DNA of 64,000 nucleotides from the NCBI GenBank assembly GCA_900549755.1, contig URPQ01000001.1, forward strand, positions 13,947-77,946, read 5' to 3'. Below the pieces are notes generated by a model. That model saw nothing but the letters and a program-made list of their open reading frames with translations. It was not told where the DNA came from and searched no databases. This DNA is from an uncultured Oscillospiraceae bacterium. Lineage in GTDB: Bacteria > Bacillota > Clostridia > Oscillospirales > Acutalibacteraceae. Shown here piece by piece: positions 8,861 to 38,022 of the stretch (within the stretch, counting starts at the first letter, position 1; each line of letters starts with the position of its first letter). A program made the position numbers and the translations under genes.

Positions 8861-8865
8861 AGAAA

Positions 8866-8894: not shown

Positions 8895-8912
8895 ATATTT
8901 CCACCCTATCCG

Positions 8913-11968: not shown

Positions 11969-12357
11969 ATCTTTTCTCCTAACCGGCTTTCGCCATAAAT
12001 ATTTATACGCCGCCTTTCGGCGCCGCTTACCGCAAGCGGCAATGCCACGTTCAGCCACTAACGGTTTTCTTCATTTTATCATTAAAATAAATCTTTGTCA
12101 AGTCTTTAGGAGGTTAATAACCGGTCTGCGGCGGCTAAATATTCCGCCTTGTTTTTGTGCAAATAGACAAATGGCACTACCGGTTGTTTAATATGTTTTA
12201 TAATATGTATAAGGAGCACAAAATATCGTAGGCTGACGAGAACTGAAAAGCCCGAAACGAATATTCTTGTCTCTTTGTATACAATTATATATTTGCTACA
12301 ATAAAAAGCCAAGCATTTTTCATCGTCATTTTTCACCAACATTTGGCAATTCAGACG

Positions 12358-14352: not shown

Positions 14353-14471
14353 TTATATTATTTCTCCGCAATTTTCTTTTATTTAAAAAGAATTTGAAAA
14401 AATTAAAAATAACACTTGATTTTATTATCATAATGTGATATTATACTATGGCAGTCTAAAAACAGGTACAC

Positions 14472-14548
14472 GCGCTGATAGCTCAGCTGGATAGAGCGTC
14501 TGGCTACGGACCAGAAGGTCGGGAGTTCGAATCTTCTTCAGCGCGCCA
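14472..14548 (+). tRNA. tRNA-Arg (anticodon ACG)
   Basis: Cloverleaf: acceptor GCGCUGA/UCAGCGC, D-arm GCUC-AGCUGGAUA-GAGC, anticodon stem UCUGG/CCAGA with loop CUACGGA, T-loop UUCGAAU, encoded CCA. The T-stem has two G-U wobbles. Confidence 0.85.
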
Positions 14549-14550
14549 AA

Positions 14551-14588
14551 AATCGGCAAACACCTAAAGGCATTTGCCGATTTTTATT
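14551..14588 (+). terminator. intrinsic terminator after tRNA-Arg
   Basis: aatcggcaaa-N12-tttgccgatt followed by TTTTT. Confidence 0.6.
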
Positions 14589-14711
14589 ATTTTAATGTAT
14601 ATTATGTCTGCCGGTATCTATCTTTATACATTTATATTTCGGCTCAAAAGCGGATACATTGCAGTTTTTCAATGTGTCCGCTTTTTTATTATGAAAAACG
14701 GAGGAACAGAA

Positions 14712-19887: not shown

Positions 19888-20512
19888 AATTTTTTACACC
19901 AAAACCGACCGAATGAAGTTCGTCTCTCACCTTGATATGAACCGCCTTATGAGCCGCATTATTATGCGGGCGGATATTCCCGTGTGGTACACCGAGGGCT
20001 TTAATCAGCGAATTTATATTAACTATGCCGTGCCGCTGTCATTAGGCTTTGAGGGGCTGTATGAGATAATTGACATACGCTTAACAGACGATAATTACCC
20101 GTTAGATACCTTGCCCCAAAGGCTTAACGGCGTGTCGGTTCCCGGTATTGAGTTTATTCGCGCAGCAGAGCCCTGTTTGCCCACAAAGGATATTTGCTTT
20201 GCGGGCTTCCGCCTGCAATTTGACAGTGCAGAAATTTTTCCCGAGCTTGAAAAATTTTTATCACAGAAAAGCGTTATTTGCCAAAAGCGGGATAAACGCG
20301 GCGGCACAAAGGATTTTGATATTATACCCAACATAAAATCCTTTGAGCTTACAGGCAGCACCGCGCAATTTATTCTGGCGGCGGGAAATAACGGCAGCCT
20401 TAACCCCTCGCTTATTATGAGCGCGTTTTTTGAGCAAACAAAAACGCCGCCCGCATATTTCACTGTTACGCGTTATATGCTGTACGACGGCGCTATGAAT
20501 GAATTTAACTGA
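19856..20512 (+). CDS. TIGR03936/DUF2344 radical-SAM-associated protein
   Basis: Conserved pairing with TIGR03960; RIFYTKTDRMKFVSHLD N-terminus typical of the family. Confidence 0.7.
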   Translation: MGRASALKNVRIFYTKTDRMKFVSHLDMNRLMSRIIMRADIPVWYTEGFNQRIYINYAVPLSLGFEGLYEIIDIRLTDDNYPLDTLPQRLNGVSVPGIEFIRAAEPCLPTKDICFAGFRLQFDSAEIFPELEKFLSQKSVICQKRDKRGGTKDFDIIPNIKSFELTGSTAQFILAAGNNGSLNPSLIMSAFFEQTKTPPAYFTVTRYMLYDGAMNEFN

Positions 20513-22631
20513 TTTCGGCAAAAACACCTTGCATTGCCTTATATGATTTTTTAAGCCGTGTTTTAACGGTTATATTCCCGAGGGGACGAAACGCGGCGGA
20601 AAACATTTTTATTTCACCGCCGCTGCCCGAGCCGACGTAAATATCCGAAAACGGAATAAAGCCTATTTCCTCTTTATTAAGCTCGCCTATACATATGCCG
20701 AGCCTTGCGTTTGCAACGTTTAAAAGATACCAGGCAATGCGCACCTCCAGCTTTCCGTTTTTAAAATAAAAATCCGCCTGCGAGTCGTAATTGCCGCTCT
20801 CGGGGTTTGCGTTGCCGTATTTTAAAAGTCCGCTTTCGTAATACTGCGGCGGAATTGTCTTTTTATCGTCGGGTAAATACATCTCGTTTGAAACAAGGGT
20901 GTTTATTTTAACATATTCCCCGCTGTTTTTAACCGCCGCTTTACCCTCAACAACCTTTTTCAAAACCGAATATCTGTAATTGAACAGGTCGTAATACGCG
21001 TCGCACAAAAGGCGCGTATTTTCTTTTCCGTTTATTTTAAGCAGAAAATCGCAGCTTTTATCAAACGTAAGCCCGTTACTGCGGCTCATAGCGCTGCCCG
21101 TGCCCAAAACCGAAATCGGAACGTAATAAACTTTCTTTTCAAAATCAAAGCCCGCGGGCAGGTCTATATAAATGTGCATATACTCGGCGTCATACTGCAC
21201 TTTAAGGCTCGTGCCGTTTACGGTGCTTACATTATCCCATTCGGTAAAATCGCCGTCGGGGTAAGCAACCGAGGTTTCAAAGCTTAACATGCCGTAGCCC
21301 TGCTCGGCAGAGGAAAGGTTACGCGTTCTGTCGGTCGGGTTATCGGGGTAATACATAACCGTGTTCCAGGTGCGCTTGAACCATTCGTCCTGCCAGGAGA
21401 AAAGCAAGCCGCCGCAGTAGCCCTCAAGCGCTATGCTGCGGGTCATATCGGCGCAGTATTTTCCCTGCTCTTCCTCTGTCAGTCCGCCCTGATTATAGCC
21501 CATAACCGATTTATGCGCCACCCCGCGCGAGGTGGAAAGCCCGTATTCCGCAATAAGCACAGGCACGGTATACTGCGTTTTAAGCGCCTTTAAATACGCG
21601 CGGTAGGTGTTTTGCCGTCCGTTCTCATCGCGGTAGTCAAGGTATTCCTTTTGGTAGTTCATAAATTCGGGGTAATATGGGTAAACGTCAACCGCGGCGA
21701 AAAGCCCGGGAGCGTATTTTTCGGTTTTCAGTATATTTTCGGTATTGACCAATTGAGAATCCTCTTCCTCAAACGGCTCGTTAGAGTGGGTGAGCGTATC
21801 AAGCGTTTGCCAGTTTAAAAACGCAACGGGGGTCTGGTGCGAATAGCTTTCGGTTTCAAAGCTTATAAGGCTTTCCCCCACCTCGCACAAAAACGCCTCA
21901 AAGGGCGACGCGTTTTTCGCGGTGTAAAGGTATTTTCCCGAAAAGCTGTTTTGCTTAGGGTGCGAGGCATTTGTCTCCGCCACAAAATCGGCGGGGTATT
22001 CAAGCCCCAGTATATATCCCACCACATACTTTGAAATATCCTTATCGTATACCGCGGGGGAAATTTTGCCGTAAACGGTGTAATCGCTGTTGCCGTGAAC
22101 AATATCCACCGTTTCTTTAGCCGAGCGCTTAAAGGCGTTTATAATAATTTCGTCGCTTTCAAGCGCGTCGGTCAGCTCGTACATTAAATCCTCGGAAAAC
22201 CATATGCCCTGAATAAGATAGAGCGGCGACTCTGCATTACGGCTGTTAAAATCGTAAAGCGCCCTGTAAAAATCGGGGTTCATAACCGTAAACACCCGCA
22301 CGGTGTTCGCGTTCATCTGCTTTATTTTTTCAAACCAATCGGTATAGGTGGAGTAAGAAACATTCGGGTTATTAAGGTCGGTAAGGGCGCTTGTAAGCCC
22401 CATATTAACGCCCTTAATATAAAAAAGCTCCGGTTTCTCCCCCATATTGCTGTAAAAATAGCCGTTTTCATTTGTAAAAAAGGCAAAATCATTATCGCCC
22501 TGCGGTGGTTTTACGCTATCGGTCGGAAACGAAAATTCACTTTGGCTTTTTTTGTTTATTACCGGGCTTTTACAGCCCGATAATGAGAATATAAGCGTGA
22601 AAATAAGCAGCAGCGAGGTTATTTTTTTCAT
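20505..22631 (-). CDS. lipoprotein, clan GH-A (GH5-like TIM-barrel) glycoside-hydrolase-like protein, paralog A
   Basis: Lipobox LSGC. Putative acid/base SNEPF and nucleophile IAEYGLSTSRG motifs. C-terminal domain FYFKNGKLEVRIAWYLLNV shared with the two paralogs. Confidence 0.6.
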   Translation of the reverse strand: MKKITSLLLIFTLIFSLSGCKSPVINKKSQSEFSFPTDSVKPPQGDNDFAFFTNENGYFYSNMGEKPELFYIKGVNMGLTSALTDLNNPNVSYSTYTDWFEKIKQMNANTVRVFTVMNPDFYRALYDFNSRNAESPLYLIQGIWFSEDLMYELTDALESDEIIINAFKRSAKETVDIVHGNSDYTVYGKISPAVYDKDISKYVVGYILGLEYPADFVAETNASHPKQNSFSGKYLYTAKNASPFEAFLCEVGESLISFETESYSHQTPVAFLNWQTLDTLTHSNEPFEEEDSQLVNTENILKTEKYAPGLFAAVDVYPYYPEFMNYQKEYLDYRDENGRQNTYRAYLKALKTQYTVPVLIAEYGLSTSRGVAHKSVMGYNQGGLTEEEQGKYCADMTRSIALEGYCGGLLFSWQDEWFKRTWNTVMYYPDNPTDRTRNLSSAEQGYGMLSFETSVAYPDGDFTEWDNVSTVNGTSLKVQYDAEYMHIYIDLPAGFDFEKKVYYVPISVLGTGSAMSRSNGLTFDKSCDFLLKINGKENTRLLCDAYYDLFNYRYSVLKKVVEGKAAVKNSGEYVKINTLVSNEMYLPDDKKTIPPQYYESGLLKYGNANPESGNYDSQADFYFKNGKLEVRIAWYLLNVANARLGICIGELNKEEIGFIPFSDIYVGSGSGGEIKMFSAAFRPLGNITVKTRLKKSYKAMQGVFAEIS

Positions 22632-24838
22632 TTTTTCTCCGTGAATTTCTTAAAATAATTTTGCAGCTCGTAATATGCGGGTTTCAGCCTTTCGTGCCAT
22701 GTGGGGGTATTCCAGCCGTTATATTCATAGCTGCCGCCGAGAGTGATTTTAAGGCTTTCGGTGCCCGTGCGGTAAGCAAAGCCGAAATCAAAGCTTTGGT
22801 ACGCCTGCGGCGATATTACCTGCGTTTTACGAAAATCCGATATTTGCTGCTTGCCCGAGGGGTCCATTACATTGAGCAGCTGCCACGGTATTCTTATTTC
22901 AAGCTTGCCGTTTTTAAAGTAAAAATCCGAAAGCGATTTATATTCCTGCGCTTTGGGATTGCCGTTTCCGTAGCGCAGCTTTCCGGTTTCATAAGCCTTA
23001 TCGGGCACAACCTGATTTGTCCCCTTAACGGTCAAATTATAGCCGTAGCACAGCCGCATTATATCAAACATACCGCTGTTTTTAACTCCCGCGTTTTCCT
23101 CCGCCTTAATATCGCTTAATTTCTTTGACTCAAGGAAGTAGTAATTGAACGCATCATAATAACGGTCTACATAAATATGCGAATTATCCTTACCGTTTAT
23201 ATAAATCAGAAAATCGGCGGCGGTATCAAACTCGGCGTTGTACTGCGCGGCTTTTAGGTTGCCCTGGTCGGCAATGGTGTTTATCGGAATAAGCAGCGTA
23301 TCCTTTTCAAAATCATAGTTCCCCGCGTCCAGCATTATATACAGGTATCTTTCATCACTCTTTATATAAAGCTTGCCCTGCCCGGTGGTAACGGTGGGCT
23401 GTGTGTTTTTCCATTCGGATACGTCCCCGTCAACATATGCCGCCATACTCTCTTTACCTGGGTCAAACGCCAGCAACCCGAAGCACTGCTCGGTCGTTTG
23501 AATGTTCGACCAGTAAGGGCGGCGATCGGCTATATCAAACATAACGTTATTCCAGGTGCGCTTGAACCACTCATCCTGCCAGGTGAACACAATTCCGCCG
23601 GCATATTTCGCGTTTTCAATACTGCCGAGCATATCTATAAGCATAGCGCCCTGCGCGGTTTCGTCCACCATACCCTGGTTATAGCCCATAACGCTCTCGT
23701 GCCCCATACCGCGTGAGGTGGGAATACCGAACTCCGCCACGATTATAGGCACGGTGTGCGCCAGCTTTAAATCCTCTAAATACGCCTCGTAGGTGTTCAC
23801 CTTTCCGCTGTCGTCGGTGTATTCAAGGTAATCCTCTTGGTAATTCAGACTGTCGGGATAATAGGGATAAATATGGTAAGAAGCGAACATTCCCGGTCCG
23901 AAATTGCGGCACTTTACGTTTTCGGTGTTTACGGTAGCCTTATCCTCATCAAAGTGCGGCTCGTTCGGGTGGGTGAGCGGGTCGGTGGTTATCCAGTTGC
24001 TGAAAGCAAGCGGAACCTGAAATTTGTAGGTTTCCGCCTCGTGCTTTATAAGCGCGTCTCCCACGCGGCACAAAAACGCCTCGAAGGGCGAAGCGGTCTG
24101 CGTATACAAATACTCGCCGTCGTAATCCTTTTTATCGGGGTGCTGGTTGTTGGTATTTATAACAAAATTCGGGTCCCATTCAATGCCTATAATCCACCCT
24201 ACAAGCCATGGCGACACATCGGTGTTGTACGTTCCGTATGCCTCACCCGCGGTTTCGGCAATTTTTGCCTTGCCGTGAATTACGTTTACAAGGTTTACCG
24301 CGTCAGTCATGAAATCGTTCAGTATCTTTTCATTTTCGGCGTAGGTATCGGATAAACGCTCTATATCCTCCTCGTTTACCCATATGCCCTGGTAAAGATA
24401 CAGCTTGTTTTTCGCCTTTTTATTGAAGTCCCCAAGCGCCTGGTAAAACTGCGGCGGCATAAGGGTATAAATTCGTATGCAGTTGCAGTTCATTTCGCTT
24501 ATATAGCCGAACCAGCGGTAATAGGTATCGTAGGATATCGTCAGGTCTCCCGGGAAAAGCCCCGGCTCGGTTGCGCCTATATTAACGCCGCGCATGAACA
24601 TCTGTTTCCAGTCGCCGCTTTCGTAAATGTAGAAATAATCGCCTTCCGCTTTAAAGCGGAAGCTTATGCCGGTTTGATTATCGGTGTAGCTTTCGGCGCC
24701 GCCGGCAGACGAGTCCTTTTCTTTCTTTTTTGTGTAAAAGGAAATTCCGTGTATTCCGAATATTTCAAGAAGTCCGGTTTGAGCAAGGCAGACAAGCACC
24801 AAAAGCGTTGCCACGACCGAAATAACGACCTTTTTCAT
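22628..24838 (-). CDS. secreted clan GH-A-like glycoside-hydrolase-like protein, paralog B
   Basis: PNEPH and VAEFGIPTSRG motifs; aligns along its length with 20505..22631; shares the C-terminal FYFKNGKLEIRIPWQLLNV domain. Confidence 0.6.
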   Translation of the reverse strand: MKKVVISVVATLLVLVCLAQTGLLEIFGIHGISFYTKKKEKDSSAGGAESYTDNQTGISFRFKAEGDYFYIYESGDWKQMFMRGVNIGATEPGLFPGDLTISYDTYYRWFGYISEMNCNCIRIYTLMPPQFYQALGDFNKKAKNKLYLYQGIWVNEEDIERLSDTYAENEKILNDFMTDAVNLVNVIHGKAKIAETAGEAYGTYNTDVSPWLVGWIIGIEWDPNFVINTNNQHPDKKDYDGEYLYTQTASPFEAFLCRVGDALIKHEAETYKFQVPLAFSNWITTDPLTHPNEPHFDEDKATVNTENVKCRNFGPGMFASYHIYPYYPDSLNYQEDYLEYTDDSGKVNTYEAYLEDLKLAHTVPIIVAEFGIPTSRGMGHESVMGYNQGMVDETAQGAMLIDMLGSIENAKYAGGIVFTWQDEWFKRTWNNVMFDIADRRPYWSNIQTTEQCFGLLAFDPGKESMAAYVDGDVSEWKNTQPTVTTGQGKLYIKSDERYLYIMLDAGNYDFEKDTLLIPINTIADQGNLKAAQYNAEFDTAADFLIYINGKDNSHIYVDRYYDAFNYYFLESKKLSDIKAEENAGVKNSGMFDIMRLCYGYNLTVKGTNQVVPDKAYETGKLRYGNGNPKAQEYKSLSDFYFKNGKLEIRIPWQLLNVMDPSGKQQISDFRKTQVISPQAYQSFDFGFAYRTGTESLKITLGGSYEYNGWNTPTWHERLKPAYYELQNYFKKFTEKK

Positions 24839-26247
24839 TGCTCAACATCCTTTCTTTTAATTTTGCCCCAGGTTTTTCTGAGCTTTCGGTATTTTAAAAT
24901 GCCCTCCAGGCGGAAAAGGGTTATCATTTGCCGATAACCGAAGTTTTCAAGAACGGCGTAAAGCGATAATGACAGGCACTGTTTTGCGCTCATAACCGAT
25001 CTTCGTGTGTATTGCTCCAAAATAAGGCTGCCCATTGAAAGTATAACGCCGAGCAGCACGGCAAGCAGAAAATAAATTGTGAAGAAGAACATATTAAGCT
25101 CGCCCATTAAAAGCGAAAACGGAATTATGAAATAGCCGAGCGCCTCAACCACCGCTCCGAAAAGCTCAAACACCCAGTTATAGGGTATTGCCGCAAGCCC
25201 CACGCTGCCGTAGCGCGGGTTGAAGAAAAGCCCCTTGTGCGCAAGCAGCGTATCAAGCAAGCCTATCTGCCAGCGCCTGCGCTGACTGCGTATATCGTTT
25301 ACCGACATGGGTCCCTGCGTCCAGCACACCGCGTCCTCGCAGAATATTATTTTATATTTGCGCCTGTTTGCGCGCATATATTTGTGAAGGCGCACTACAA
25401 TTTCCATATCCTCGCCTATTGTGTTGGTCTTGTAACCGCCCACCTCAATTACCGCCTGTTTTTTAAAAACGCCGAACGCGCCCGACACTATAAGCATTGA
25501 GTTTGTGGCGCCCCAGCTTACCCTGCCCGAGAGGAAAGAACGGTAATATTCCACAATCTGAAAGCGCTCTATCATTTTCTGCGGCATTGAAAAGCCGCTT
25601 ACCCGCCCGTCACGTATTTTAAAGCCGTTTGCAATGCGCACAAGTCCGCCCGCCACAACCGTATCGGTATTTTTAAGAAACTCAACCGAAAGTCTTAAAA
25701 GCGCGTCCGGCTCAATGCGGGAATCCGCGTCAAGGCAGGCAAAAAGCGGGTAGGAGGATATATTTATCCCTGCGTTCAGCGCGTCGGATTTACCGCCGTT
25801 TTCCTTATCAACATAAATAAGGTTTGGGTACTCTATGTTATAGTATACCCCGCGGACTTCCTTTGTGGGTATTGAGGTTTTTACGGCGGATTCGATTTTA
25901 TAAAGCCCGAAGGTCTCCACAATTTTTTCGTGAGTTTTATCGGTCGAGCCGTCGTTCACAACCACAATTTCAAACTGCGGGTAATCTATTTTCATAAGCG
26001 ATTTTATGTTTGAAACAATATTTTCCTGCTCGTTATACGCCGGTATAAGCAAAGAAATGGGTAAAAGATTTTCGCTTGAAACATATCTTCCGTAGTCGTT
26101 TGACTGCCTTGCCTTATCGTTTTTGCGCACCCGCACAAACGAAATTATGAGCTGAATTATGTATATCAGGCTCAGAATAATGGTAAATGCCATGCAAAAC
26201 CAGTTAAAAAAGGATATAAAGTAGCGTACATAGGTTATGAAATTCAA
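24835..26247 (-). CDS. processive family-2 glycosyltransferase (PgaC/IcaA/cellulose-synthase-like polysaccharide synthase)
   Basis: GT-A motifs (VVNDGSTD, DAD, GED) plus QRRRW (QxxRW) processivity motif; N- and C-terminal TM helices. Confidence 0.8.
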   Translation of the reverse strand: MNFITYVRYFISFFNWFCMAFTIILSLIYIIQLIISFVRVRKNDKARQSNDYGRYVSSENLLPISLLIPAYNEQENIVSNIKSLMKIDYPQFEIVVVNDGSTDKTHEKIVETFGLYKIESAVKTSIPTKEVRGVYYNIEYPNLIYVDKENGGKSDALNAGINISSYPLFACLDADSRIEPDALLRLSVEFLKNTDTVVAGGLVRIANGFKIRDGRVSGFSMPQKMIERFQIVEYYRSFLSGRVSWGATNSMLIVSGAFGVFKKQAVIEVGGYKTNTIGEDMEIVVRLHKYMRANRRKYKIIFCEDAVCWTQGPMSVNDIRSQRRRWQIGLLDTLLAHKGLFFNPRYGSVGLAAIPYNWVFELFGAVVEALGYFIIPFSLLMGELNMFFFTIYFLLAVLLGVILSMGSLILEQYTRRSVMSAKQCLSLSLYAVLENFGYRQMITLFRLEGILKYRKLRKTWGKIKRKDVEQ

Positions 26248-26249
26248 AC

Positions 26250-27347
26250 TTAATCCTCCTTTAAATTAACCGAACGGTAAAGCGCGTATTTAACCGCGTC
26301 CGACGCATACTTATCGTACCCGCCGAGCACATCCTCAACTTCCGAAATATTTACGTTCATATCAATAAGCGAATACGCCGCCGCCTGGCGTACCCACCAT
26401 TCCTTATCCTTTGTGGCTTCCTTTACGCCCTGTATTGCCGCGGGGGTGCCCAGCTTCTGAAGCCCCTTAACGGCGGCGGAGCGCACTACCCACTCCCTGT
26501 CCTTTGCGGCGGTGAGCAGCGTGTGCTCATCTGCCGGGTCGGCAAGAAAACCGAGCGCCCGCACGCAGGCTATGCGCATATCGGTATTCCGCGAAGCGGT
26601 ACCCTCGGAATAAAGGCGGTGAAAGCGCTTAAAACCGTATGGTGCAATAGCCTTTATTATAACCGCTTTCATATACTCATCGCATTTTTCAATTACCGCG
26701 ACCGCCAGAGCCTCTCTGTCCGCGCTGAAATTTGCAAAAAGCTCGTATATAATGCGGAATGAGAACTTTTTATCATTTTGGATTTTTAAAATATATTCCG
26801 CCACGCCCTCTGTATATCCCAAACGTGCAAGCGCCATTGCGGCGTTGTAGGCAATGCTGCGGTTTTTACCCTTTGAAAGCTCGTAAATATCGTTTAAATA
26901 ATCATAAGCGTCTAAATCGGCAAGTCGGCGGCAGGCATAGCCCACCCTGTATTTATCGCCCGATTTTAAAATATCCGAAAAAAGCTTTACGGGGTCAAGC
27001 GCCGCATACACACCGTCAATAACCATATCCTTTCTGCCGATGGTTTCGCTGTCGCCGTATTCCTCCCAAAAAAGGAGCTGCGCGCTTATCATTTCAAAAA
27101 GCCTTGTATCGTTTCCCATAAGCTCCTTTAAAAGCTCGGTTTCATTTTTGCGGCTGTTTTCGGTAGGGCTGTAAATAATGCCCTCTACCATACTCTGAAT
27201 TTTCTGCGATGCCGCCGTGTATTTATTTTTGCTGTCCTCCTGCCGTTTAGCCAGAATTGCCAGCCACAAATACTCACCGCCTAAAACCAGCAGGCAGAAA
27301 ATAATGCTTAACACCGCAAACAGTTCATAATGCAAAGCCCTTAGCAC
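26250..27347 (-). CDS. HEAT (PBS-lyase-type) repeat membrane-anchored protein
   Basis: N-terminal TM helix; repeated DxxWxVRxxAxxxL units near the C-terminus. Confidence 0.6.
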   Translation of the reverse strand: MLRALHYELFAVLSIIFCLLVLGGEYLWLAILAKRQEDSKNKYTAASQKIQSMVEGIIYSPTENSRKNETELLKELMGNDTRLFEMISAQLLFWEEYGDSETIGRKDMVIDGVYAALDPVKLFSDILKSGDKYRVGYACRRLADLDAYDYLNDIYELSKGKNRSIAYNAAMALARLGYTEGVAEYILKIQNDKKFSFRIIYELFANFSADREALAVAVIEKCDEYMKAVIIKAIAPYGFKRFHRLYSEGTASRNTDMRIACVRALGFLADPADEHTLLTAAKDREWVVRSAAVKGLQKLGTPAAIQGVKEATKDKEWWVRQAAAYSLIDMNVNISEVEDVLGGYDKYASDAVKYALYRSVNLKED

Positions 27348-27353
27348 CTCCCT

Positions 27354-30353
27354 TTATTTTGATGCAAAATATTTCTTTATCTGCGCAAAGCTTTCCTTTT
27401 CGCGCATGGTGTAGTTCACCTTTTCCCAGGTTGCCCATTTAAAGGTTTTGTAAGCCGGGTCTTCCTTTTTCTCGGGGAACAGGTAAAGCTGGTCGCCCGT
27501 TTGCTTATCGGCTATAAGCACCGAAACAATAGCGCCGTTTGTGCTTACCGTCTTTGCCTGACCCGATAAAGCGCCCTCGTTATTTATAACAATTCGCTGT
27601 GACGGGTCTGTAACGTTAAGCCATGACCAGGGTATTCTTATATAAATTGTAGAGCCGGTCTGGTAAAACTGGTTATCGCCCGAGGTAAAGCCGCCGTATT
27701 TAAGGCGGGAAACAAGGTTATAATCCCCAGAGTAGCTTTCCTTTGTAGCATACGCGCCGCGGCTGCGGTCATATGATTTTATAACGTACAGCCCCGCTTC
27801 CTGCTTGCCGTCAAACCGTAAAACAAACTCCATACCCGAAAGGGAGGTTGGGGTGCAGTCCTTTGAATAGTAGTATTCGCCGTCATTCCGCTGGTAGGTA
27901 TCTATGCCTATAAAGAACTGCTCGGTTGAAAAATCAATCTCGGTCAGCAGCTGTGCGGATATATAGAAATATCCCGCTCCCGAGGATAGCGAAAGCATCT
28001 GAACGCGGTCGTCGTCCGATAGGTTTATTCCCGTCTCCTTGGGTGCTTCGGAGTCAAGCGCCACAAGCCCCGTGGTTTGCGCGGGGTCGGCTACATTCTG
28101 CCACAGGCTGTTGTTTTCAAGCGGCACCGTGAACGGGTAAAGCTCATCGGATACAGCTGACCAATCATCGTTAAGGTCTGCCGCCACCGCTGCCGCAGCG
28201 CCCGCCTTGTCCGCCGCCGAAAGCAGAGCCACAGTTTGCTGACCCTGTGTTTTTTCGGTAACGGCGGCTCTGTCGCCCTGACCGTTTGCAGAGTTTGCGC
28301 CCAGCCCCGAAATCAGCAGTCGGTTACCCGTCGCGCTGTTAAGGCTTTCAAATTCCTCTTCCTTAACATCTCCGTAAGAAACGGCAAAGAATGCGTAATT
28401 TTCGCGGCAGGCTTTGTCGCTTATTATATCGCCAAGCGAATACGCACCATCGCCCGCCGTTTCGCTGCCCTTTATAAGCGATTTATCGCAATAAACGCCT
28501 ATCGGCACGGTGCTGCCGTACTGCCCTGCTGCGCGCTCCTGCACCGTATCGTACATAAGCGCGGCAATTCCCGCGTTTCCGCCGGAGGCGGCATATTTGC
28601 CCGAATATGAAATATTTGCGGGCGCGTTTTCGGCGTTTAACGTAACCGCAAGCAGATAAGCTGATACATCAATAAAGTATGATGAGGTTTCTTCGCTGCC
28701 GCTCGGTTTAAATGTGCCCTTGCCGTGAAGAACGTCAACCGCCGACTGTAAGCGGGTTTTAATATTATCCTCGTTTTCATCCCCGTTTACGGCAATATTC
28801 TGTATTATATAAACCGTATCCGCTCCCGATTTTGTATTGTTGGAATAAACCGCGCGGTAAAACTCAGGCGGCAGAATATCCTTTGCGTAAATACAGTTCG
28901 CGCCCAGCTTCAGCGCCTTGTCAATTAAATTCTGATAAAAGGTATAATTCCGCGAAAAGCCCTTTTGCCCCGGCTCCGAGCCGTTAATGCTTACGGCGTT
29001 AATTCGCATATCCTCCCAATTATCCCCCGAAAGCAGCTGAAAACCGCTGTCGGTAATGCGGAAACGCTCCGCCTTGTTATTACCCGTTTCCGCTTTTGCC
29101 TTGGGCTCAATTTCTTTAAGAATTTTTTTCATTAAGGGGTTGTAAAAATTCCAGTAAAAATTGCTTATATCGCCCTGGCGGTCGTAGGATATCCACCGGT
29201 AAACGCTTTCGGCAAACAAAAAGCGATTGTAATTTTCGTGGCTTACATAATCGTTAAAATCGCCCGCGAAATAATAAACCGGCGCCTTTCCCTCTACCCT
29301 TTTGCACATTGCCGCCGAAAAAACGGGACTTTTTAAAACGCCCTTGAGCTTTTCCATACCCGTAGCGTTTACGTCAAATTCAAAGCTTGCAATAACATCC
29401 GTACCGCTGTTCGGCTCAACAATTTCAAACCAGTTGTAAAAGTTCACCTTATTGCAGCTGCCGAACTGCTTTTTAAAATCCTTGTTTATGCGCACGGTAA
29501 GCAGGTTTTTAGATTCAAAGTCGGTTTTCTGCTCAAGAATTATAATTCTGTCTGAGGAAACGAGCAGTATTCCGGGTCCCGAAAATTGCCACTCAACGCC
29601 CTCCTGCTTTTCATACATCGGCGGCGCCCAGTCGGGCACGTCGGTGAAATCCTGCAAATCGTAAATATATCGTCCCACCCAGCCCGTCGGTCTTATGCCG
29701 CAAAGCGAGGATAACTGCGAATAAACCGAGGAATCAAGCCCCGAATTAAAAAGTTCCATTTCCGCAACAACGGTTGCGCCGTTTTCGTAGGCATATGAAA
29801 TAACCGACATATCGTCTACGGTTATTCCGGCGCCCCTAGCCGTGGAATTATCGTAATAGCCGTAGGTATCGTCCACCGCGCCGTAAACGTCCGCAATATA
29901 CATAAGGTCGGGCGTGTAATCGAGGGTGGATAAATCACGTCGAGACTTTATTTTGCCTGTTTCATCAAGCAGCGGTCCGAAATAATCGGTTTTGTAATTA
30001 TAAAATTTTTTATTCTGAAAAACATACTTCTGCTGCTCCAAAAGCCAGAAAAAGCCCTGATGCTTGCGGTAGGCAGAGCGTATGTCAATATCGTTGCCGT
30101 CCTCTACGGTTAAAACCGTTTTATCAAGCAGGCAAACGTTAAGCAGGGTTTTAGGCTTTATCCGCCACCCTATAAACACAAAAGCAAACAGTGCCAGAAA
30201 CACAAGGGGTATAATAAAATACCACTTTGCTTTTTTCGGCTTTTTAACCTTTTCAACCTCAGCCTCAGTCTGCTTTTCGCGGTCTTTTTCCGGGTCAAAG
30301 CGTATTTCTCCGTCCTCGGCGGTAAATTCGTTTTCGTTCGGGTTTTCGTTCAT
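27354..30353 (-). CDS. large type-II membrane-anchored extracellular protein, divergent paralog C of the GH-A-like family (catalytic motifs not evident)
   Basis: Charged cytoplasmic N-terminus plus one TM. Central barrel region aligns with the paralogs (CIYAKDILPPEFYRAVY...VYIIQNIAV) but lacks NEP and EYG motifs. Shares the C-terminal IYIRIPWSWLNV domain. Confidence 0.55.
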   Translation of the reverse strand: MNENPNENEFTAEDGEIRFDPEKDREKQTEAEVEKVKKPKKAKWYFIIPLVFLALFAFVFIGWRIKPKTLLNVCLLDKTVLTVEDGNDIDIRSAYRKHQGFFWLLEQQKYVFQNKKFYNYKTDYFGPLLDETGKIKSRRDLSTLDYTPDLMYIADVYGAVDDTYGYYDNSTARGAGITVDDMSVISYAYENGATVVAEMELFNSGLDSSVYSQLSSLCGIRPTGWVGRYIYDLQDFTDVPDWAPPMYEKQEGVEWQFSGPGILLVSSDRIIILEQKTDFESKNLLTVRINKDFKKQFGSCNKVNFYNWFEIVEPNSGTDVIASFEFDVNATGMEKLKGVLKSPVFSAAMCKRVEGKAPVYYFAGDFNDYVSHENYNRFLFAESVYRWISYDRQGDISNFYWNFYNPLMKKILKEIEPKAKAETGNNKAERFRITDSGFQLLSGDNWEDMRINAVSINGSEPGQKGFSRNYTFYQNLIDKALKLGANCIYAKDILPPEFYRAVYSNNTKSGADTVYIIQNIAVNGDENEDNIKTRLQSAVDVLHGKGTFKPSGSEETSSYFIDVSAYLLAVTLNAENAPANISYSGKYAASGGNAGIAALMYDTVQERAAGQYGSTVPIGVYCDKSLIKGSETAGDGAYSLGDIISDKACRENYAFFAVSYGDVKEEEFESLNSATGNRLLISGLGANSANGQGDRAAVTEKTQGQQTVALLSAADKAGAAAAVAADLNDDWSAVSDELYPFTVPLENNSLWQNVADPAQTTGLVALDSEAPKETGINLSDDDRVQMLSLSSGAGYFYISAQLLTEIDFSTEQFFIGIDTYQRNDGEYYYSKDCTPTSLSGMEFVLRFDGKQEAGLYVIKSYDRSRGAYATKESYSGDYNLVSRLKYGGFTSGDNQFYQTGSTIYIRIPWSWLNVTDPSQRIVINNEGALSGQAKTVSTNGAIVSVLIADKQTGDQLYLFPEKKEDPAYKTFKWATWEKVNYTMREKESFAQIKKYFASK

Positions 30354-32581
30354 TTGTTTTTCTCCGCTACCTTTGCTTTTATTTCATCTATACACCCGTG
30401 CATTGCCTCAACCACCGCCGGGTCATACATTGTTCCGGAGTTTGAGTTTATATAATCCACAACATTATCAACCTGCCATGCGTCCTTATATGAGCGCTTG
30501 GTGGTAAGCGCATCTATTGTGTCGGCAACCGTTACTATGCGCGCGTATTCGTTTATATTTTCCCCCGCAATTCCGTTGTAGCCCTTGCCGTCCCACCGCT
30601 CGTGGTGCTCGGCGGCTATTTCGGCGGCGCAACGCATAAACTCACCGTCAAAAACAGATAACAGCCGCCTGCCGTATTCGGTGTGCTCCTTAATAGTTTC
30701 GCGTTCGCTTTCCGAAAGCAGACCCGTTTTGTTTGTAATTTCGGTAGGTATTGCCGTTTTGCCTATATCGTGCAGCATTGCCGCGGCAGCTACCGTATTG
30801 CATATTTCTTGGGGATAGCCCATTTTTCGCATAAGCAAATCGGTATAATACGCCACGCACTCAATGTGGTCGGGGTTGTTTCCGGCGGCTGTCTCGGTAT
30901 CGGCTGCAAGCTGTGTGAATGCTTCTATTTTCGTCTTTTCCGTATCCTCATACTGTGAAAAGCGCGATAAAGCAACCTCGGTGCAGGTGTAAACCGTATC
31001 CATAATGCTTGTGAAAAAGTGTGAAAGCCCGTTGCTTAAATTTTCAAAATGGAAAAAAACGGCGGGATTACCGTTTTCGGTAAATACAAAATCAAAATAA
31101 GCGTCGGCAAAAACGCAAAGCCTGCCGCTTTCGGCGCACCGTTTTTCTATTATTTCATAGTTTACACCGCCCGGCAGGGAATTATAAATCTGCCTGTAGC
31201 TGCCGTTTTCCTTTACCGAAACCTCAAAGGCAATATTTTGCGCGGCGTTTTCGGTAAATATTTCGCTGCAAAGCTTAATAACGCCGTCCGCCGCCGCTTT
31301 ACAGACAGAAAGCTTATCGCGGCGGGAAATTATATCTGCCATAATATCCGCCGTTTCCCCCACGCATTTATCATAAGTTTCGGTTTTAAGCCTTGCTGTA
31401 TCGGCACTGTCCCTTGCAAACGCCTTTGCCGATAAAATAAAGCTGATAAAGCCCAAAAACACCAGCTCGCCTATAATTCGGCAATAGGTAAAGTTGTTTC
31501 TGAACCTGAGCGAAAACTGCATAGCGCCGCAAAGTGCATCCAGCAGCGACAGGTAGGTAAGCATTATAAAAAAGCCCGCGGCAAACTGTATTCTGTGTTT
31601 TAAAGGGCGGGCGCACCCGTAAGCGCAAGCAGCCGTGCAAATTGCCGAAAGCAGCGCCGATAAAAGCATAACCGGCCTTGCAATAACTACATTCGGTATA
31701 AAAAACGTTGCAGCGGCGGCAGCTACACTGAGCGCGGAAAAAAGAAATATTTTTTTTCCCTTAATTTCAAGCGCGGATTTTGCCGTTAACGTGAAAATTA
31801 AAATAATAAATATCTCTGTGGCGACAGCTGTATTGTAAAGCTGCGGAAAATTTATAAAATAGGTTGCACCGGTTATCGCCTGCAAAGCCGCGGCTGTGCC
31901 GTAAAGTAAAATAAGCCCCGCCGTTTTAAAGCCCGGCGCCCTGTTTTTTTTGTAAAAAGGCAGGAAAGCTGCCAAAAACAGTGCCGCTATGCCGAGCACC
32001 ACCATTATTGCGGCAAAAACCAATGCGCCGTTTACTATAAATCCGGGATTTTCGGATTTCTCGGTAATTTCGGTTGTAATTTCGGCTGAAAATGGAAGGC
32101 ACAAAGACATTTCAACCTTGGTTTCGCCGTCAGTCGCCGGCAATACCACCGCGTTATAGCGGTTGCCCACATATTCGCTTTCGCCGTAGTGATTATTATA
32201 AACCGCCTCGCCGTTAATAGCTATTTGCATAGGCGCGTAGTCAGCCCTTATAATAAGCTTACGTTCTATTGCAGCGCCGTCAAGGCTGAAACGAATGTGC
32301 ATATATTTCCCGCTTTTTTCCCTTGACATGGGCGTAAACGCATTAGCCGCGCTCCACTCAGCCCTGTTATCGGTCGGTGGCTGCTTGCTGTTTGTGTAAA
32401 TATACTCCCACGCCGGCACCGATTTACCTGATATAACCGAAGCCTCCACATGATTAAAAACATAGGTTACTGCCACTGTTACAACAAGCAAAACCGCCGC
32501 AAACTCGGCTAAAAGCCAAAAGTTTGCCCCGCCTGCGGCTGTTTTTTTAATTTTTTGCAAAAAGTAGGTTACTTTACGCAT
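30350..32581 (-). CDS. 7TM-receptor with extracellular domain and C-terminal HD-GYP c-di-GMP phosphodiesterase domain
   Basis: HD motif MLHDIGK and HHERWDGKGYNG (HD-GYP signature); N-terminal TM, periplasmic domain, multi-TM block. Confidence 0.75.
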   Translation of the reverse strand: MRKVTYFLQKIKKTAAGGANFWLLAEFAAVLLVVTVAVTYVFNHVEASVISGKSVPAWEYIYTNSKQPPTDNRAEWSAANAFTPMSREKSGKYMHIRFSLDGAAIERKLIIRADYAPMQIAINGEAVYNNHYGESEYVGNRYNAVVLPATDGETKVEMSLCLPFSAEITTEITEKSENPGFIVNGALVFAAIMVVLGIAALFLAAFLPFYKKNRAPGFKTAGLILLYGTAAALQAITGATYFINFPQLYNTAVATEIFIILIFTLTAKSALEIKGKKIFLFSALSVAAAAATFFIPNVVIARPVMLLSALLSAICTAACAYGCARPLKHRIQFAAGFFIMLTYLSLLDALCGAMQFSLRFRNNFTYCRIIGELVFLGFISFILSAKAFARDSADTARLKTETYDKCVGETADIMADIISRRDKLSVCKAAADGVIKLCSEIFTENAAQNIAFEVSVKENGSYRQIYNSLPGGVNYEIIEKRCAESGRLCVFADAYFDFVFTENGNPAVFFHFENLSNGLSHFFTSIMDTVYTCTEVALSRFSQYEDTEKTKIEAFTQLAADTETAAGNNPDHIECVAYYTDLLMRKMGYPQEICNTVAAAAMLHDIGKTAIPTEITNKTGLLSESERETIKEHTEYGRRLLSVFDGEFMRCAAEIAAEHHERWDGKGYNGIAGENINEYARIVTVADTIDALTTKRSYKDAWQVDNVVDYINSNSGTMYDPAVVEAMHGCIDEIKAKVAEKNK

Positions 32582-32590
32582 TTTTCACCC

Positions 32591-32788
32591 CTACAAACGC
32601 GAATATTTTTCCAAAAGCTTTTTAACCTCAGGCGGGCTTTGCGCGGTGGCGGCGCTGCTGCCCGAAATATCGGGGCAGGCTTTTATAGCCTCGCCCAAAG
32701 CCTCATACGCCCGCGTCACCCGCTCAAGCGCCGCTCTCAGCTCTTTATTTTCCCTTTCAAGCTCTTCAAGCGTTTTTTCTCTGCTCAA
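32591..32788 (-). CDS. small coiled-coil protein (65 aa), hypothetical
   Basis: Heptad-like EELERENKELRAALERV; sits between the lipoprotein and HD-GYP genes; weak support. Confidence 0.3.
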   Translation of the reverse strand: MSREKTLEELERENKELRAALERVTRAYEALGEAIKACPDISGSSAATAQSPPEVKKLLEKYSRL

Positions 32789-32801
32789 TCCTTTACGCCC
32801 C

Positions 32802-33482
32802 TTATTTTGAAGAAGTCATTTTTTTAATAATCGCACGCCCCGAACTATCCTCAACCGTTAAAACGGTTTTGCCCGTTTTTTCGGTCTTAGCCGAATCGGA
32901 GTAAAACACCGTGGTAACCTTATAGGTATCGGTTCCGGCGCGTTTTATTTCGGTATCGTAGTAAATTTCGGTGCCGTAGTGCGGCTCCCACATTTCAAAC
33001 TGCTTTTTGCCACTGTTATAAAGGTCTGCCTTTGTAATATCCACCGAAACCGAGCCGAAATATTTTAAAATCTGCAATTTAATATCATCGGCAGAGGCGG
33101 TTCTCAGTCTGTTTCCGGAGCTCGGCATATCGGTAAGATTTTCATAGTAAATATGGCAAAAGGCAAACTGCACCAGCGCGTTCACCGAAATATCATCCGC
33201 CGACGAAAATTTTTCCTGCGCCAGCAAATACCGCAATTCATAGCTGCGGTGCGCAAGCGCGTCGGCGTTTATATATTCAGGAACAGGCTTATTGCTTGTT
33301 TCCCCGCCCTGCTCTTCCGAAGTAATTTCGGAAGAATTCTTTTTTATTCCGGGGTTTGTGTTGTTGCAACCCGCAAAAGTAAATATTATAAGCAGCGCCA
33401 AAAGGCACGCAAACCTTTTCATTATCATGTCTCCCAAATCTATAAAAAATCGCCGCCGCACAACCTTGCGCAGCAGCGACAA
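32802..33482 (-). CDS. lipoprotein, hypothetical
   Basis: Signal peptide with FAGC lipobox; 226 aa. Confidence 0.5.
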   Translation of the reverse strand: MSLLRKVVRRRFFIDLGDMIMKRFACLLALLIIFTFAGCNNTNPGIKKNSSEITSEEQGGETSNKPVPEYINADALAHRSYELRYLLAQEKFSSADDISVNALVQFAFCHIYYENLTDMPSSGNRLRTASADDIKLQILKYFGSVSVDITKADLYNSGKKQFEMWEPHYGTEIYYDTEIKRAGTDTYKVTTVFYSDSAKTEKTGKTVLTVEDSSGRAIIKKMTSSK

Positions 33483-33515
33483 AACCTTAAAATTTATAAC
33501 GGCTGACAGTACGGT

Positions 33516-34745
33516 TTAATAATTCCACATATAATCGGTATATGAAATTGTCAAATCATCGTTGTTCTCAATAAACACATCAGCCGAGCCGACATACTTA
33601 TGAGCAATGTATGCGTCGGACTTAATTGTTGAGCCTAACGGCAGATTTACCGAAAGACTTTCAAGCGGAGTGTTTACAACCTGCTTTATTCCGGTCTGCT
33701 TATTGTAGTCGGTCTTAAAGTGGTATCTGTAGGCCATAAAGCACTTGTTTACATCGGTTCTGAGCACCGGGTCACCCTTCGGCAAAACAAAGGTCTTGGT
33801 TTCGGGGTCAAAGCTTCTCTCATCATAGCGGTTGGATACCTTAACTGTGTAAACCACGGTACCGCAAATACCGTCGCCGTCATCCGAATATCTGTCATTA
33901 TCCCAGTTGTTAGAGCACATCTGAAATTTATATTCTTTTCCGATTTCAAGAATTATGCTTTCGCCGCCGTAGTAAACGGTGCCATCTTCAAAACGAACCG
34001 ACATTCTTTTCGGGCACACAATGCTGCCCTTAACCTCATTTTTTCCGGGTTCTCTGTCAGCGTCGGGCTTATCGGTTGCGGGCTGCTTTTTCCAGCATGC
34101 GTAAAGGGTTACGGTATTCATATTTGCCGAAAAAATAAGTTTGTCCGACGTTATAACGTCGCCCGCCTTGTATGCGGTGCCCGAACCGTCGGCAGCGGTG
34201 TTCCAACCTATAAAATCATAGCCCTCGCGGGTAAAGCCGTTTTCCTTTACGGTAGCCGAGTCGCCTTTATAATAATGAGTTCCGTCGGTTACGGCACCTG
34301 CCGCGTTATCGCAGTTAGCATCATAAAGCACGCTGCAGAAAGGAGTTACAACGCCGTCAACATGCCAGCCGTCGTCTTCCCACTTCACAACATACCAAAT
34401 GATTGACTGCCCGTCTTTAAGAGTTATACTCGGCGCGCTTACAATAATTTTTTCGATGCTTGCGCCGGTTTCATCATAAATTCCGTCCAAATTACTGTTG
34501 GTAATTGTTATTTTACCCCAGCCTGCTGCCATATAATTTTTTGACGGCTGCGACGCTGTTCCTACCGGAACCTCAAGACCTTCGTTAAGTAAATAGAACC
34601 TTGCGTCAACGGTTCTTGACCAATTGCTGCCGTGACCGGGATAGTAATCCCAATCCTCCCAGCTGTATGCCTCTGCCGATGCGGTTACGCCGAAAATGCC
34701 CAAAAGCATTGCAGCGGCAACTAATAAGGAAAATAACTTTTTCAT
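33516..34745 (-). CDS. secreted protein with Listeria-Bacteroides (InlB B-repeat/Flg_new) repeat domain
   Basis: Signal peptide MKKLFSLLVAAAMLLGIFGVTASA. REGYDFIGWNTAADGSGTAYKAGDVI...TLYACW repeat signature. Start moved to the ATG at 34745 because the track GTG start lies in the leader-terminator stem. Confidence 0.6.
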   Translation of the reverse strand: MKKLFSLLVAAAMLLGIFGVTASAEAYSWEDWDYYPGHGSNWSRTVDARFYLLNEGLEVPVGTASQPSKNYMAAGWGKITITNSNLDGIYDETGASIEKIIVSAPSITLKDGQSIIWYVVKWEDDGWHVDGVVTPFCSVLYDANCDNAAGAVTDGTHYYKGDSATVKENGFTREGYDFIGWNTAADGSGTAYKAGDVITSDKLIFSANMNTVTLYACWKKQPATDKPDADREPGKNEVKGSIVCPKRMSVRFEDGTVYYGGESIILEIGKEYKFQMCSNNWDNDRYSDDGDGICGTVVYTVKVSNRYDERSFDPETKTFVLPKGDPVLRTDVNKCFMAYRYHFKTDYNKQTGIKQVVNTPLESLSVNLPLGSTIKSDAYIAHKYVGSADVFIENNDDLTISYTDYMWNY

Positions 34746-34764: not shown

Positions 34765-34821
34765 AGAAAATAAAAAAGCTGCACCTATAACGGAATTTAA
34801 AAATTCCATATAAGTGCAGCC
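34765..34821 (-). terminator. intrinsic terminator inside the 5' leader (riboswitch expression platform)
   Basis: Minus strand: GGCTGCAC-N30 (with internal ggaatttttaaattcc palindrome)-GTGCAGC then TTTTTTATTTT, just upstream of the RBS/ATG. Confidence 0.55.
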
Positions 34822-34896
34822 TGACAATCATAGCATAAAAGCCTTAGATTCATAGCTTTGCGTCACACGCTTTCGCGTGTTTTGCCTTTTAACTGT
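34822..34896 (-). promoter_or_regulatory. candidate c-di-GMP-I (GEMM) riboswitch aptamer
   Basis: Minus-strand RNA reads AAAAGGCAAAAC-ACGC-GAAA-GCGU-GU-GACGCAAAGC. This parallels the Vc2 element GGGCAAACC-AUUC-GAAA-GAGU-GG-GACGCAAAGCC element for element: GCAAA bulge, GNRA-capped 4-bp stem, GACGCAAAGC. It is followed by CUAAG/UAUG receptor-like elements and then the terminator. Confidence 0.55.
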
Positions 34897-34902
34897 AAGG
34901 TG

Positions 34903-34931
34903 ATTATATCACATCGTTTTGTAAATTGCAA
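34903..34931 (-). promoter_or_regulatory. sigma-A promoter TTGCAA-17-TATAAT driving the riboswitch leader/operon
   Basis: Minus strand: TTGCAA (34926-34931), 17-nt spacer, TATAAT (34903-34908). Confidence 0.6.
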
Positions 34932-37647: not shown

Positions 37648-38022
37648 ATGAGCACACCCAAGATTTTTGAAAGCGAATACCGTTTTTGTCTTATTTTGTG
37701 GGAATATGAGCCGATAAAAAGCAGCGAGCTTGTAAAGCTTTGCAAAGATAAGCTCGGCTGGAAGCCCACCACAACCTACACCGTTATAAAGCGCTTATCC
37801 GAGCGTGGCGTTGTGAAAAACGAAAACACGGTGGTTTCGTCCCTCGTAAGCCGCGAGGAGGCACAGGCGGCGGAAATAGACGAAATGGTGGAAAAAACCT
37901 TCGGCGGCTCTTTACCTGCGTTTATAGCGGCGTTTACAAAGCACCGCAGGCTCTCAGAGCGGGAAATTGACGAAGTTCAGCAGATGATAGACCGTTTCAG
38001 GGAGGGCGAAAACAATGGGTGA
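37648..38022 (+). CDS. BlaI/MecI/CopY-family transcriptional repressor
   Basis: 124-aa winged-helix protein with characteristic N-terminus. Confidence 0.8.
   Translation: MSTPKIFESEYRFCLILWEYEPIKSSELVKLCKDKLGWKPTTTYTVIKRLSERGVVKNENTVVSSLVSREEAQAAEIDEMVEKTFGGSLPAFIAAFTKHRRLSEREIDEVQQMIDRFREGENNG

Follow-up and report, generated by a model that had tools for sequence, protein, structure and literature searches.

The window analysed here, 64,000 nucleotides of a contig from an uncultured Oscillospiraceae bacterium (assembly GCA_900549755.1, contig URPQ01000001.1), carries an operon of nine close-packed minus-strand open reading frames (ORFs), g1 to g9, at 20505-34745, downstream of a class I cyclic di-GMP (c-di-GMP-I) riboswitch. 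Judging from their sequences, these genes probably serve the c-di-GMP-controlled making and processing of a surface or biofilm polysaccharide, by a synthase-dependent system of an uncharacterised type. The locus lacks the features that define pga/ica, bcs/ccs and pss/yda operons, and it shows no sign of Pel components or of a Wzx/Wzy-type component. An earlier account made from the letters alone (below, the sequence-only reading) had described nine packed or overlapping minus-strand genes after a riboswitch, of neither canonical pga/ica nor bcs type, and the ORFs were recovered at the coordinates that it gave, and the aptamer (74.8 bits) ahead of them. The features of the locus, all on the minus strand, are listed here in the order of transcription.

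34903..34931, minus strand: promoter of sigma-70 type, TTGCAA-17 nt-TATAAT, with an extended -10 TG
34812..34896, minus strand: c-di-GMP-I (GEMM-I) aptamer, Rfam RF01051
34768..34822, minus strand: terminator of the expression platform, hairpin of about 21 bp followed by U6AU4
33516..34745, minus strand: g1, secreted protein of 409 aa with a signal peptide and one Flg_new repeat
33444..33480, minus strand: intrinsic terminator between g1 and g2, 14-bp stem followed by U6
32802..33422, minus strand: g2, lipoprotein of 206 aa, lipobox FAGC
32591..32788, minus strand: g3, coiled-coil protein of 65 aa with a TTG start, homologues in relatives
30350..32581, minus strand: g4, membrane HD-GYP protein of 743 aa (GYN variant), HD_5
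27354..30353, minus strand: g5, type-II membrane protein of 999 aa, long-form paralogue of the glycoside hydrolase clan A (GH-A)-like family by homology to g8
26250..27347, minus strand: g6, HEAT-repeat protein of 365 aa with a single transmembrane segment, HEAT_2
24835..26247, minus strand: g7, membrane glycosyltransferase of family 2 (GT2), 470 aa, putative processive synthase by Pfam GT2 families
22628..24838, minus strand: g8, membrane-anchored extracytoplasmic clan GH-A (GH157-like) protein of 736 aa, predicted catalytic pair E220/E369
20505..22631, minus strand: g9, lipoprotein paralogue of g8, 708 aa, lipobox LSGC

Neighbouring genes overlap or nearly touch, with junctions of -4, -4, +2, +6, -4, +9 and +13 nt and one gap of 93 nt, between g1 and g2. 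The operon is bordered by a divergent DUF4364 gene on its upstream side and by a convergent radical-SAM/DUF2344 pair on its downstream side; because these flanks are unrelated the unit is well bounded. No transporter, sugar kinase, catabolic gene or catabolic regulator is found within the cluster, the flanking genes being unrelated housekeeping genes. The Listeria-Bacteroides-repeat protein, the lipoprotein, the coiled coil, the HEAT membrane protein and the GT2 with a QRRRW motif were each reproduced with tools. A Pfam scan of the nine products gave no polysaccharide deacetylase of the PgaB/IcaB kind and no PilZ, PgaD or BcsB domain; the first three absences had already been read from the letters. 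Pfam and NCBIfam likewise report no Wzx/Wzy-type component among the nine.

The product of g7 is a membrane GT2 with the D, DxD, (G/T)ED and Q(R/Q)xRW signature of processive synthases (here DAD, GED and QRRRW) and transmembrane segments at 17-35 and 359-404. Its best NCBIfam match is PgaC_IcaA (E 1e-38), at 133 bits against an equivalog cutoff of 422.3, and the score for CelA, 52 bits, likewise falls short of its cutoff of 699; the best PDB sequence match is BcsA (E 2e-7), and Pfam also reports Chitin_synth_2 and no PilZ on this protein. The putative obligate partner of the synthase is g6, which consists of one transmembrane segment and cytoplasmic HEAT repeats (HEAT_2, 71.6 bits).

Three of the nine products, g5, g8 and g9, are related. 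The last two are 42% identical and residues 419-925 of g5 match g8 (E 6e-21), so the triplicated GH-A-like family proposed in the sequence-only reading is real, with the g5 copy dead. None of the three has a Pfam, NCBIfam or PDB match by single-sequence search. A plain g8 homologue search gave near-identical metagenome copies only; the breadth of the family comes from a search at 50% clustering, which yields 1,619 representatives, 618 of them scoring below 1e-30. The AlphaFold model of g8 (63 homologues; predicted local distance difference test score, pLDDT, 94.6; predicted template-modelling score 0.90) runs from a transmembrane helix through a small beta subdomain and a (beta/alpha)8 barrel to a C-terminal beta-sandwich. 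The barrel is of the clan GH-A type found in GH157, with glutamates on strands 4 and 7; these are E220 and E369 respectively, which their positions mark as the predicted catalytic pair, and g9 keeps both. With this fold and Glu pair, g8 and g9 have the make-up of a dedicated extracytoplasmic glycoside hydrolase encoded beside a synthase. The closest structures to g8 by Foldseek are a GH157 endo-beta-1,3-glucanase and GH2 and GH5 mannanases. The only PDB sequence match of the family profile, a marginally significant one, is again GH157 (LaGH157; E 0.0024, 19 bits, about 110 residues). Structural identity between g8 and GH157 is 16%, and the AEFG of g8 aligns on the TEFG of LaGH157, the Glu being the residue mutated in the E224A complex 9g4n. 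GH157 enzymes are endo-beta-1,3-glucanases (PMC10229575). On sequence grounds the g8/g9 family is more likely a sister family of GH157 than a part of it; of the earlier label "GH5-like" the clan was right and the family was not. By their nearest relatives, g7 appears to lean towards N-acetylglucosamine-type synthases and the hydrolases towards beta-1,3-glucan enzymes.

A locus scan of one genome per species, made with a 15-sequence alignment of the family, revealed that at least 594 species carry a relative. Neighbourhoods are described for the best 80 of these at least 594 loci (designated by L numbers), and counts refer to 71 loci of at least 14 kb, searched with iterated profiles. The best 80 come from Eubacteriales and Ruminococcaceae metagenome-assembled genomes (MAGs; 57-82% identity), Paenibacillus, Cohnella, Desulfosporosinus and Clostridium, and also from many Bacillaceae, Christensenellaceae, Lachnospiraceae and Izemoplasmatales. 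The gene order takes four forms: the full g2-g9 order in L002-L015, g8-g5-g6-g7 in Paenibacillus, g8-(REC)-g6-g7 in Clostridium, and (GGDEF)-g6-g7-long form-(REC, hybrid kinase) in Bacillaceae. Peribacillus has the triad of HEAT protein, GT2 and GH-A-like protein flanked by a REC-GGDEF cyclase and by a REC and hybrid kinase pair. The co-occurrence profiling that the sequence-only reading had suggested gave a g7-type GT2 in 58 of the 71 loci and the HEAT protein in 57, the two occurring together in 57. Some element of c-di-GMP signalling is present in 42/71 (a GGDEF gene in 30, an HD-GYP gene in 14, a riboswitch in 10). The components are also joined in single proteins, as HEAT-GT2 fusions in L036 and L053 and as GH-like-HEAT fusions in P0123, P0134 and P0140. 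Conservation, fusions and c-di-GMP elements together indicate a conserved core of HEAT protein, GT2 and GH-A-like protein that is habitually wired to c-di-GMP signalling. The "unusual composition" noted earlier thus stands as a non-canonical make-up but not as a one-off oddity, the module being widespread and conserved; no published description of it was found in the searchable literature, which omits most subscription journals, in keeping with the earlier view of an undescribed synthase-dependent exopolysaccharide system.

Two further family representatives, P0232 and P0212, have N-terminal TPR repeats fused to the GH-A-like domain, which recalls the TPR scaffolds PgaA, BcsC and PelB of diderm export systems. 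Beside the HEAT-GT2 fusion genes lie genes for ODP-GGDEF-REC proteins (L036, 8004-9992; L053, 3854-5896). ODP is a diiron oxygen-binding domain of metallo-beta-lactamase fold, and its presence suggests that in Izemoplasmatales and Clostridium grantii the module also takes up a redox or oxygen signal.

The third paralogue, g5, is colinear over its full length with a single 1,082-residue Peribacillus homologue (E 1e-57). This long form consists of a transmembrane segment, a novel alpha/beta N-domain of about 350 residues, a GH-A-like barrel and a beta-sandwich. Profile searches of Pfam and the PDB found no relatives of the N-domain, which is a separate gene in four loci. The model of g5 is moderate (pLDDT 69), and its barrel, which is without the catalytic nucleophile, dominates the Foldseek matches, the best of which is also GH157. 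Agd3, a galactosaminogalactan deacetylase (6nwz), appears at Foldseek rank 9 (E 8e-6) with a TM-score of 0.13 over 976 columns and was set aside as probably spurious. In a census of the catalytic pair, 79 of the 80 loci have at least one copy with both glutamates. Bacillaceae possess a single long form with both residues in place; the long form of the window and of L002-L015 no longer has the pair, which is kept there by one or two short forms. A dead long form beside apparently active short forms is what one would expect if the gene had been duplicated and the copies had divided the labour between them; the dead copy would be a polymer-handling scaffold and the other copies the active processing enzymes.

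The aptamer matches RF01051 over its full length (model positions 1-87), well above the Rfam gathering score of 35. The promoter (34931-34903) has 10/12 consensus matches with the TG present, and its position implies that transcription should start at or near the first base of the aptamer. In the window leader the 5' arm of the terminator starts with the GGCUGC that closes the aptamer. The same arm starts within the 3' strand of the aptamer helix, as GGCUGC or CCAGGUUGC, in all six Ruminococcaceae-type leaders, and the overlap design of the platform is kept in L010, L012, L013a/b and L015. When the aptamer is enforced in the fold, five basal terminator pairs are lost and the residual hairpin is parted from the U-tract, so that ligand should favour read-through. 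We infer an ON switch, from the conserved overlap design and not from thermodynamics.

A covariance model built from six aptamers finds a c-di-GMP-I riboswitch in ten loci, with orthologous aptamers in L010, L012, L013, L015, L016, L017, L019 and L025. The riboswitch lies directly 5' of g2 in L010, L012 and L013, heads the operon in L015, and is upstream of the operon also in three Paenibacillus species and L025. L010 is the closest relative with usable flanks; g1 is absent there, and the window aptamer and terminator are near-identical to its own. This likeness and the operon-head positions in relatives indicate that the riboswitch ancestrally belongs to the operon itself. The first gene after the riboswitch in two Paenibacillus loci (L016, 8955-9851; L019, 8788-9684) and a Clostridiaceae MAG (L025, 8669-9655) encodes a secreted protein of about 300 aa that has no Pfam match and occupies the place of g2.

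Two other riboswitches lie close to relatives of the module. One is found just past the HEAT-GT2-long-form cluster of Aquibacillus koreensis (L041, 8421-8507), where it precedes a membrane GGDEF gene (8562-9527); a gene for a c-di-GMP synthase would here have a leader that senses c-di-GMP, which may create a feed-forward or feedback loop. The other (L070, 18276-18371) lies 5' of a gene whose product is an LPXTG-anchored DUF7601/DUF5979 protein of 711 aa; a GT2/GH-like pair is a few kb away, and this is another instance of a riboswitch and adhesin pairing beside the module.

Among the accessory genes, g2 has no Pfam or NCBIfam match and is kept as the first operon gene in L002-L013. Homologues of g3 occur at the same position in L002 and L010, and L013 has a coiled-coil ORF there. 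The product of g4 comprises an N-terminal transmembrane segment, an ectodomain of about 140 aa, a multi-transmembrane block and an HD-GYP domain. It scores 109 bits with HD_5 and aligns to Persephonella PmGH (4mcw; E 5e-37), keeping the metal-ligand motifs HDIGK, EHHERWDG and D..ALT of that enzyme and the HD-superfamily ligand pattern H..HD..H..HHE..D. The literal GYP is absent, GYN (KGYNG) standing where PmGH has GYP. By sequence g4 is a predicted c-di-GMP phosphodiesterase, an HD-GYP variant with intact catalytic motifs, which bears out the in-operon c-di-GMP degrader of the sequence-only reading. Its "7TM" description is approximate: a crude hydropathy scan finds one segment plus six later hydrophobic ones, seven in all, and a seventh in the multi-transmembrane block is possible.

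From this anatomy we infer the following course of events. High c-di-GMP would stabilise the aptamer and sequester the GGCUGC at the base of the terminator stem, and RNA polymerase would read through. Encoded first, g1 would be made in excess, and the second, leaky terminator would lower the dose of g2-g9 relative to it, setting a ratio of high g1 to low enzyme. The synthase g7 would polymerise a nucleotide sugar and extrude the chain through its own transmembrane channel, with the cytoplasmic HEAT protein g6 as a putative obligate regulatory or scaffold subunit. Outside the membrane the dead long form g5 may receive or bind the polymer, and g8 (transmembrane anchor) and g9 (lipoprotein) would cut, trim, release, cross-link or transglycosylate the nascent chain. 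BcsZ, PslG and the C-terminal domain of PgaB are polymer-processing hydrolases of other systems and provide a model for these two proteins. Finally, g4, with its extracellular sensor domain, would hydrolyse c-di-GMP and exert negative feedback on the riboswitch.

A bolder proposal, which we put forward only tentatively and rate as rather less probable than its opposite, is that the triad represents a separate class of exopolysaccharide machine of the synthase-dependent kind, spread across the Firmicutes and equal in rank to Bcs, Pga, Pel and Alg. The polymer would then be none of the known ones, possibly a beta-1,3-linked glycan given the nearest relatives of the hydrolases. The HEAT protein would be a post-translational switch, either a c-di-GMP receptor or a docking site for neighbouring cyclases, and the dead long form would be an extracellular polymer-handling subunit, by analogy a functional counterpart of BcsB. 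The class I riboswitch and the operon's own c-di-GMP-degrading sensor would together form a self-limiting pulse generator for matrix in a gut or rumen lineage.

Several observations weigh against a c-di-GMP-controlled synthase operon. A GH-like gene occurs without a GT2 in 13 of the 71 loci, so the GH-like family is not strictly tied to the synthase, and the nearest characterised relatives of g8 and g9 are catabolic enzymes. Pfam finds no recognisable c-di-GMP-binding domain (PilZ, GGDEF or other known receptors) on the synthase complex, g2-g9; a novel receptor, for example g6, may be involved. In other synthase complexes c-di-GMP is received post-translationally by PilZ, the PgaCD interface, PelD or Alg44. 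A 16-bp hairpin persists even with the aptamer enforced, and the ON direction consequently rests on the loss of basal pairs beside the U-tract. The main caveat is a strong terminator after g1 (33480-33444, minus strand; 14-bp stem with eight G-C pairs, then U6), the top-ranked terminator-like site in a 16.5-kb scan. It went unmentioned when the locus was called a c-di-GMP-gated operon; the riboswitch, promoter and expression-platform terminator of that description hold, and g2-g9 can be reached in the window only by read-through past the g1/g2 site. Separate transcription of the genes, which had been named as the finding that would tell against an operon, is touched on by this terminator but not established by it.

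One can therefore ask whether the riboswitch gates g1 only, g2-g9 being a separate unit that is not c-di-GMP-gated at the RNA level here. The g1 product has a Flg_new (Listeria-Bacteroides) repeat (PF09479, 33.6 bits; TIGR02543, 24.4 bits) and a signal peptide ending ...TASA/EA as read from the translation, and is likely an adhesin or matrix protein. Besides the rank of the terminator itself, hairpins at the same g1/g2 position in five relatives (L004, L006, L007, L008 and L011) speak for a division there, and in L007 and L008 they are followed by AT-rich sequence with TATAAT-like boxes. L013, moreover, has two c-di-GMP-I riboswitches (1027-1106 and 14413-14500), one heading the g2-g9 operon and the other heading a g1 homologue sited after g9, which makes g1 a separable riboswitch-controlled unit. 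In the window, however, the distance from the U-tract to the g2 start is only about 20 nt, which leaves no room for a promoter ahead of the g2 ribosome-binding site; g1 itself contains only weak promoter-like matches, no more numerous than shuffled sequence would lead one to expect. A second riboswitch, degenerate forms included, was looked for between g1 and g2 and not found. The L010 aptamer and terminator precede g2 directly in the absence of g1, and the riboswitch stands at the operon head in L012, L013, L015 and Paenibacillus. We consider a riboswitch restricted to g1 improbable.

A divergent poly-N-acetylglucosamine (PNAG) locus of the pga/ica type, with g7 as a PgaC/IcaA orthologue and the deacetylase and PgaD/IcaD encoded elsewhere, would account for the top NCBIfam match of g7 and for its Chitin_synth_2 match, and the window does contain a stand-alone CE4 polysaccharide deacetylase gene (7578-8336, plus strand; Polysacc_deac_1, 137 bits), the only deacetylase in it. 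That gene lies 12 kb from the operon on the opposite strand, among the housekeeping genes pyrH, frr, uppS, cdsA, dxr, rseP and ispG; its product, probably a deacetylase of peptidoglycan, might in principle have the polymer as a substrate. The PgaC_IcaA score is far below the equivalog cutoff, a deacetylase, PgaD or IcaD is neither in the operon nor seen in the related loci with scanned neighbours, and the conserved partners are HEAT and GH157-like proteins instead, all of which makes a PNAG locus quite unlikely. It seems very unlikely indeed that the cluster is a glycan-utilisation locus whose GH-A-like proteins, as catabolic glycosidases at the cell surface, break down an external substrate of beta-glucan type. 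The degradative nature of the closest structures, the loci with a GH-like gene and no GT2, and the origin of the organism in gut or rumen metagenomes would suit such a role; yet the cluster has no transporter, sugar kinase or catabolic regulator, a membrane GT2 is adjacent in most of the loci and the GH-like domain is in some genomes fused to the HEAT partner of that GT2, a catalytically dead paralogue is retained, and control by c-di-GMP is typical of matrix production and not of catabolism. The reading that we prefer remains a c-di-GMP-controlled, synthase-dependent polysaccharide operon.

Elsewhere in the window we noted a tRNA gene (14472-14545, plus strand), a GH78 alpha-L-rhamnosidase gene (14574-17051, plus strand), a gene for a BlaR1-type M56 sensor-peptidase (38015-39808, plus strand) and a tmRNA gene (45023-45369, minus strand; 158.8 bits), all of which appear unrelated to the operon. 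Two ORFs, of 412 aa (10820-12058, minus strand) and 264 aa (42092-42886, minus strand), have no Pfam family at E 1e-5.

Synthase-dependent polysaccharide systems, among them those for cellulose, PNAG, Pel and alginate, hold a central place in biofilm biology; few types have been recognised, and the Gram-positive systems are the least understood. The module described here reaches at least 594 species-level genomes, among them gut and rumen Clostridia, Paenibacillus and many Bacillaceae, and its carriers include tractable cultured hosts in Paenibacillus, Peribacillus and Clostridium. Pfam, NCBIfam and the PDB contain no family for two signature proteins of the module, namely the GH157-like enzyme, including the long form with its novel N-domain, and, in this capacity, the HEAT partner. 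The locus offers a new glycoside-hydrolase-like family with a dead paralogue, what may be a new way for c-di-GMP to control a synthase, and a natural feedback circuit of riboswitch plus predicted phosphodiesterase.

With pga/ica operons the locus shares a membrane GT2 without PilZ whose best NCBIfam match is PgaC_IcaA, predicted control by c-di-GMP, and, as the predicted counterpart of the C-terminal domain of PgaB, a glycoside hydrolase acting on the product outside the membrane. It differs in that g7 falls below the equivalog cutoff, in the absence from the operon of a CE4 deacetylase (PgaB/IcaB), PgaD/IcaD and PgaA, in partners that are a HEAT-repeat transmembrane protein and GH157-like proteins, and in c-di-GMP that would act through the RNA leader. 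As described, pga/ica operons are not known to include HEAT or GH157-like proteins.

The resemblance to bcs/ccs systems lies in the putative processive GT2, the extracytoplasmic membrane-anchored partner, the predicted dedicated endoglycanase and the probable dependence on c-di-GMP, and CcsZ of the clostridial ccsZABHI operon is a GH5 enzyme, hence also of clan GH-A (PMC7710045). Unlike these systems, the window operon has no PilZ, BcsB, CBM11-type CcsB or MBOAT/DHHW pair by Pfam; CelA is below its cutoff, and the hydrolase belongs to another family and is triplicated. The Pel system comprises the GT4 enzyme PelF, PelD, PelE, PelG and the hydrolase/deacetylase PelA. Here the only glycosyltransferase of the nine products is the GT2, and there is no Pel-related or GT4 match in Pfam or NCBIfam, a result that is indicative only, as the Pel coverage of these libraries is unchecked.

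The Listeria pssA-E and Bacillus subtilis ydaJKLMN operons are c-di-GMP-dependent, synthase-type exopolysaccharide operons with an IcaA-like GT2 without PilZ (PMC4125290, PMC13274460), and comprise the BcsB orthologue PssD, the degenerate-GGDEF receptor PssE/YdaK and a separate glycosyl hydrolase, PssZ/YdaJ (PMC4125290). The window operon is likewise a Firmicute locus, probably of c-di-GMP-dependent synthase type, with a GT2 free of PilZ. It departs from them in domain content: Pfam finds BcsB-like, GGDEF and GH8 domains in none of the nine products, and HEAT and GH157-like proteins are not listed for the pss/yda operons. The hydrolase PssZ/YdaJ we take to be the GH8 member. That the cluster is B. 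subtilis ydaJKLMN was rejected on this domain content (no BcsB, GGDEF or GH8), not by direct comparison with Yda sequences.

The characterised GH157 enzymes LaGH157 and BcellWH2_01931 resemble g8 and g9 in the profile match and in the nucleophile motif (xEFG against TEFG), but g8 and g9 are membrane- or lipid-anchored, have another C-terminal beta-sandwich, and are encoded beside a synthase and not in a Bacteroidetes utilisation locus. As for the leader, those of Clostridium difficile pilA1 and adhesin genes similarly place a c-di-GMP riboswitch and terminator platform in the 5' leader of a surface gene. The pilA1 locus begins with a structural gene, and its assembly genes stand beyond a terminator, an order like that of the window operon. 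The difference is that here a class I aptamer heads a polysaccharide-synthase operon, one which also encodes a predicted c-di-GMP-degrading enzyme.

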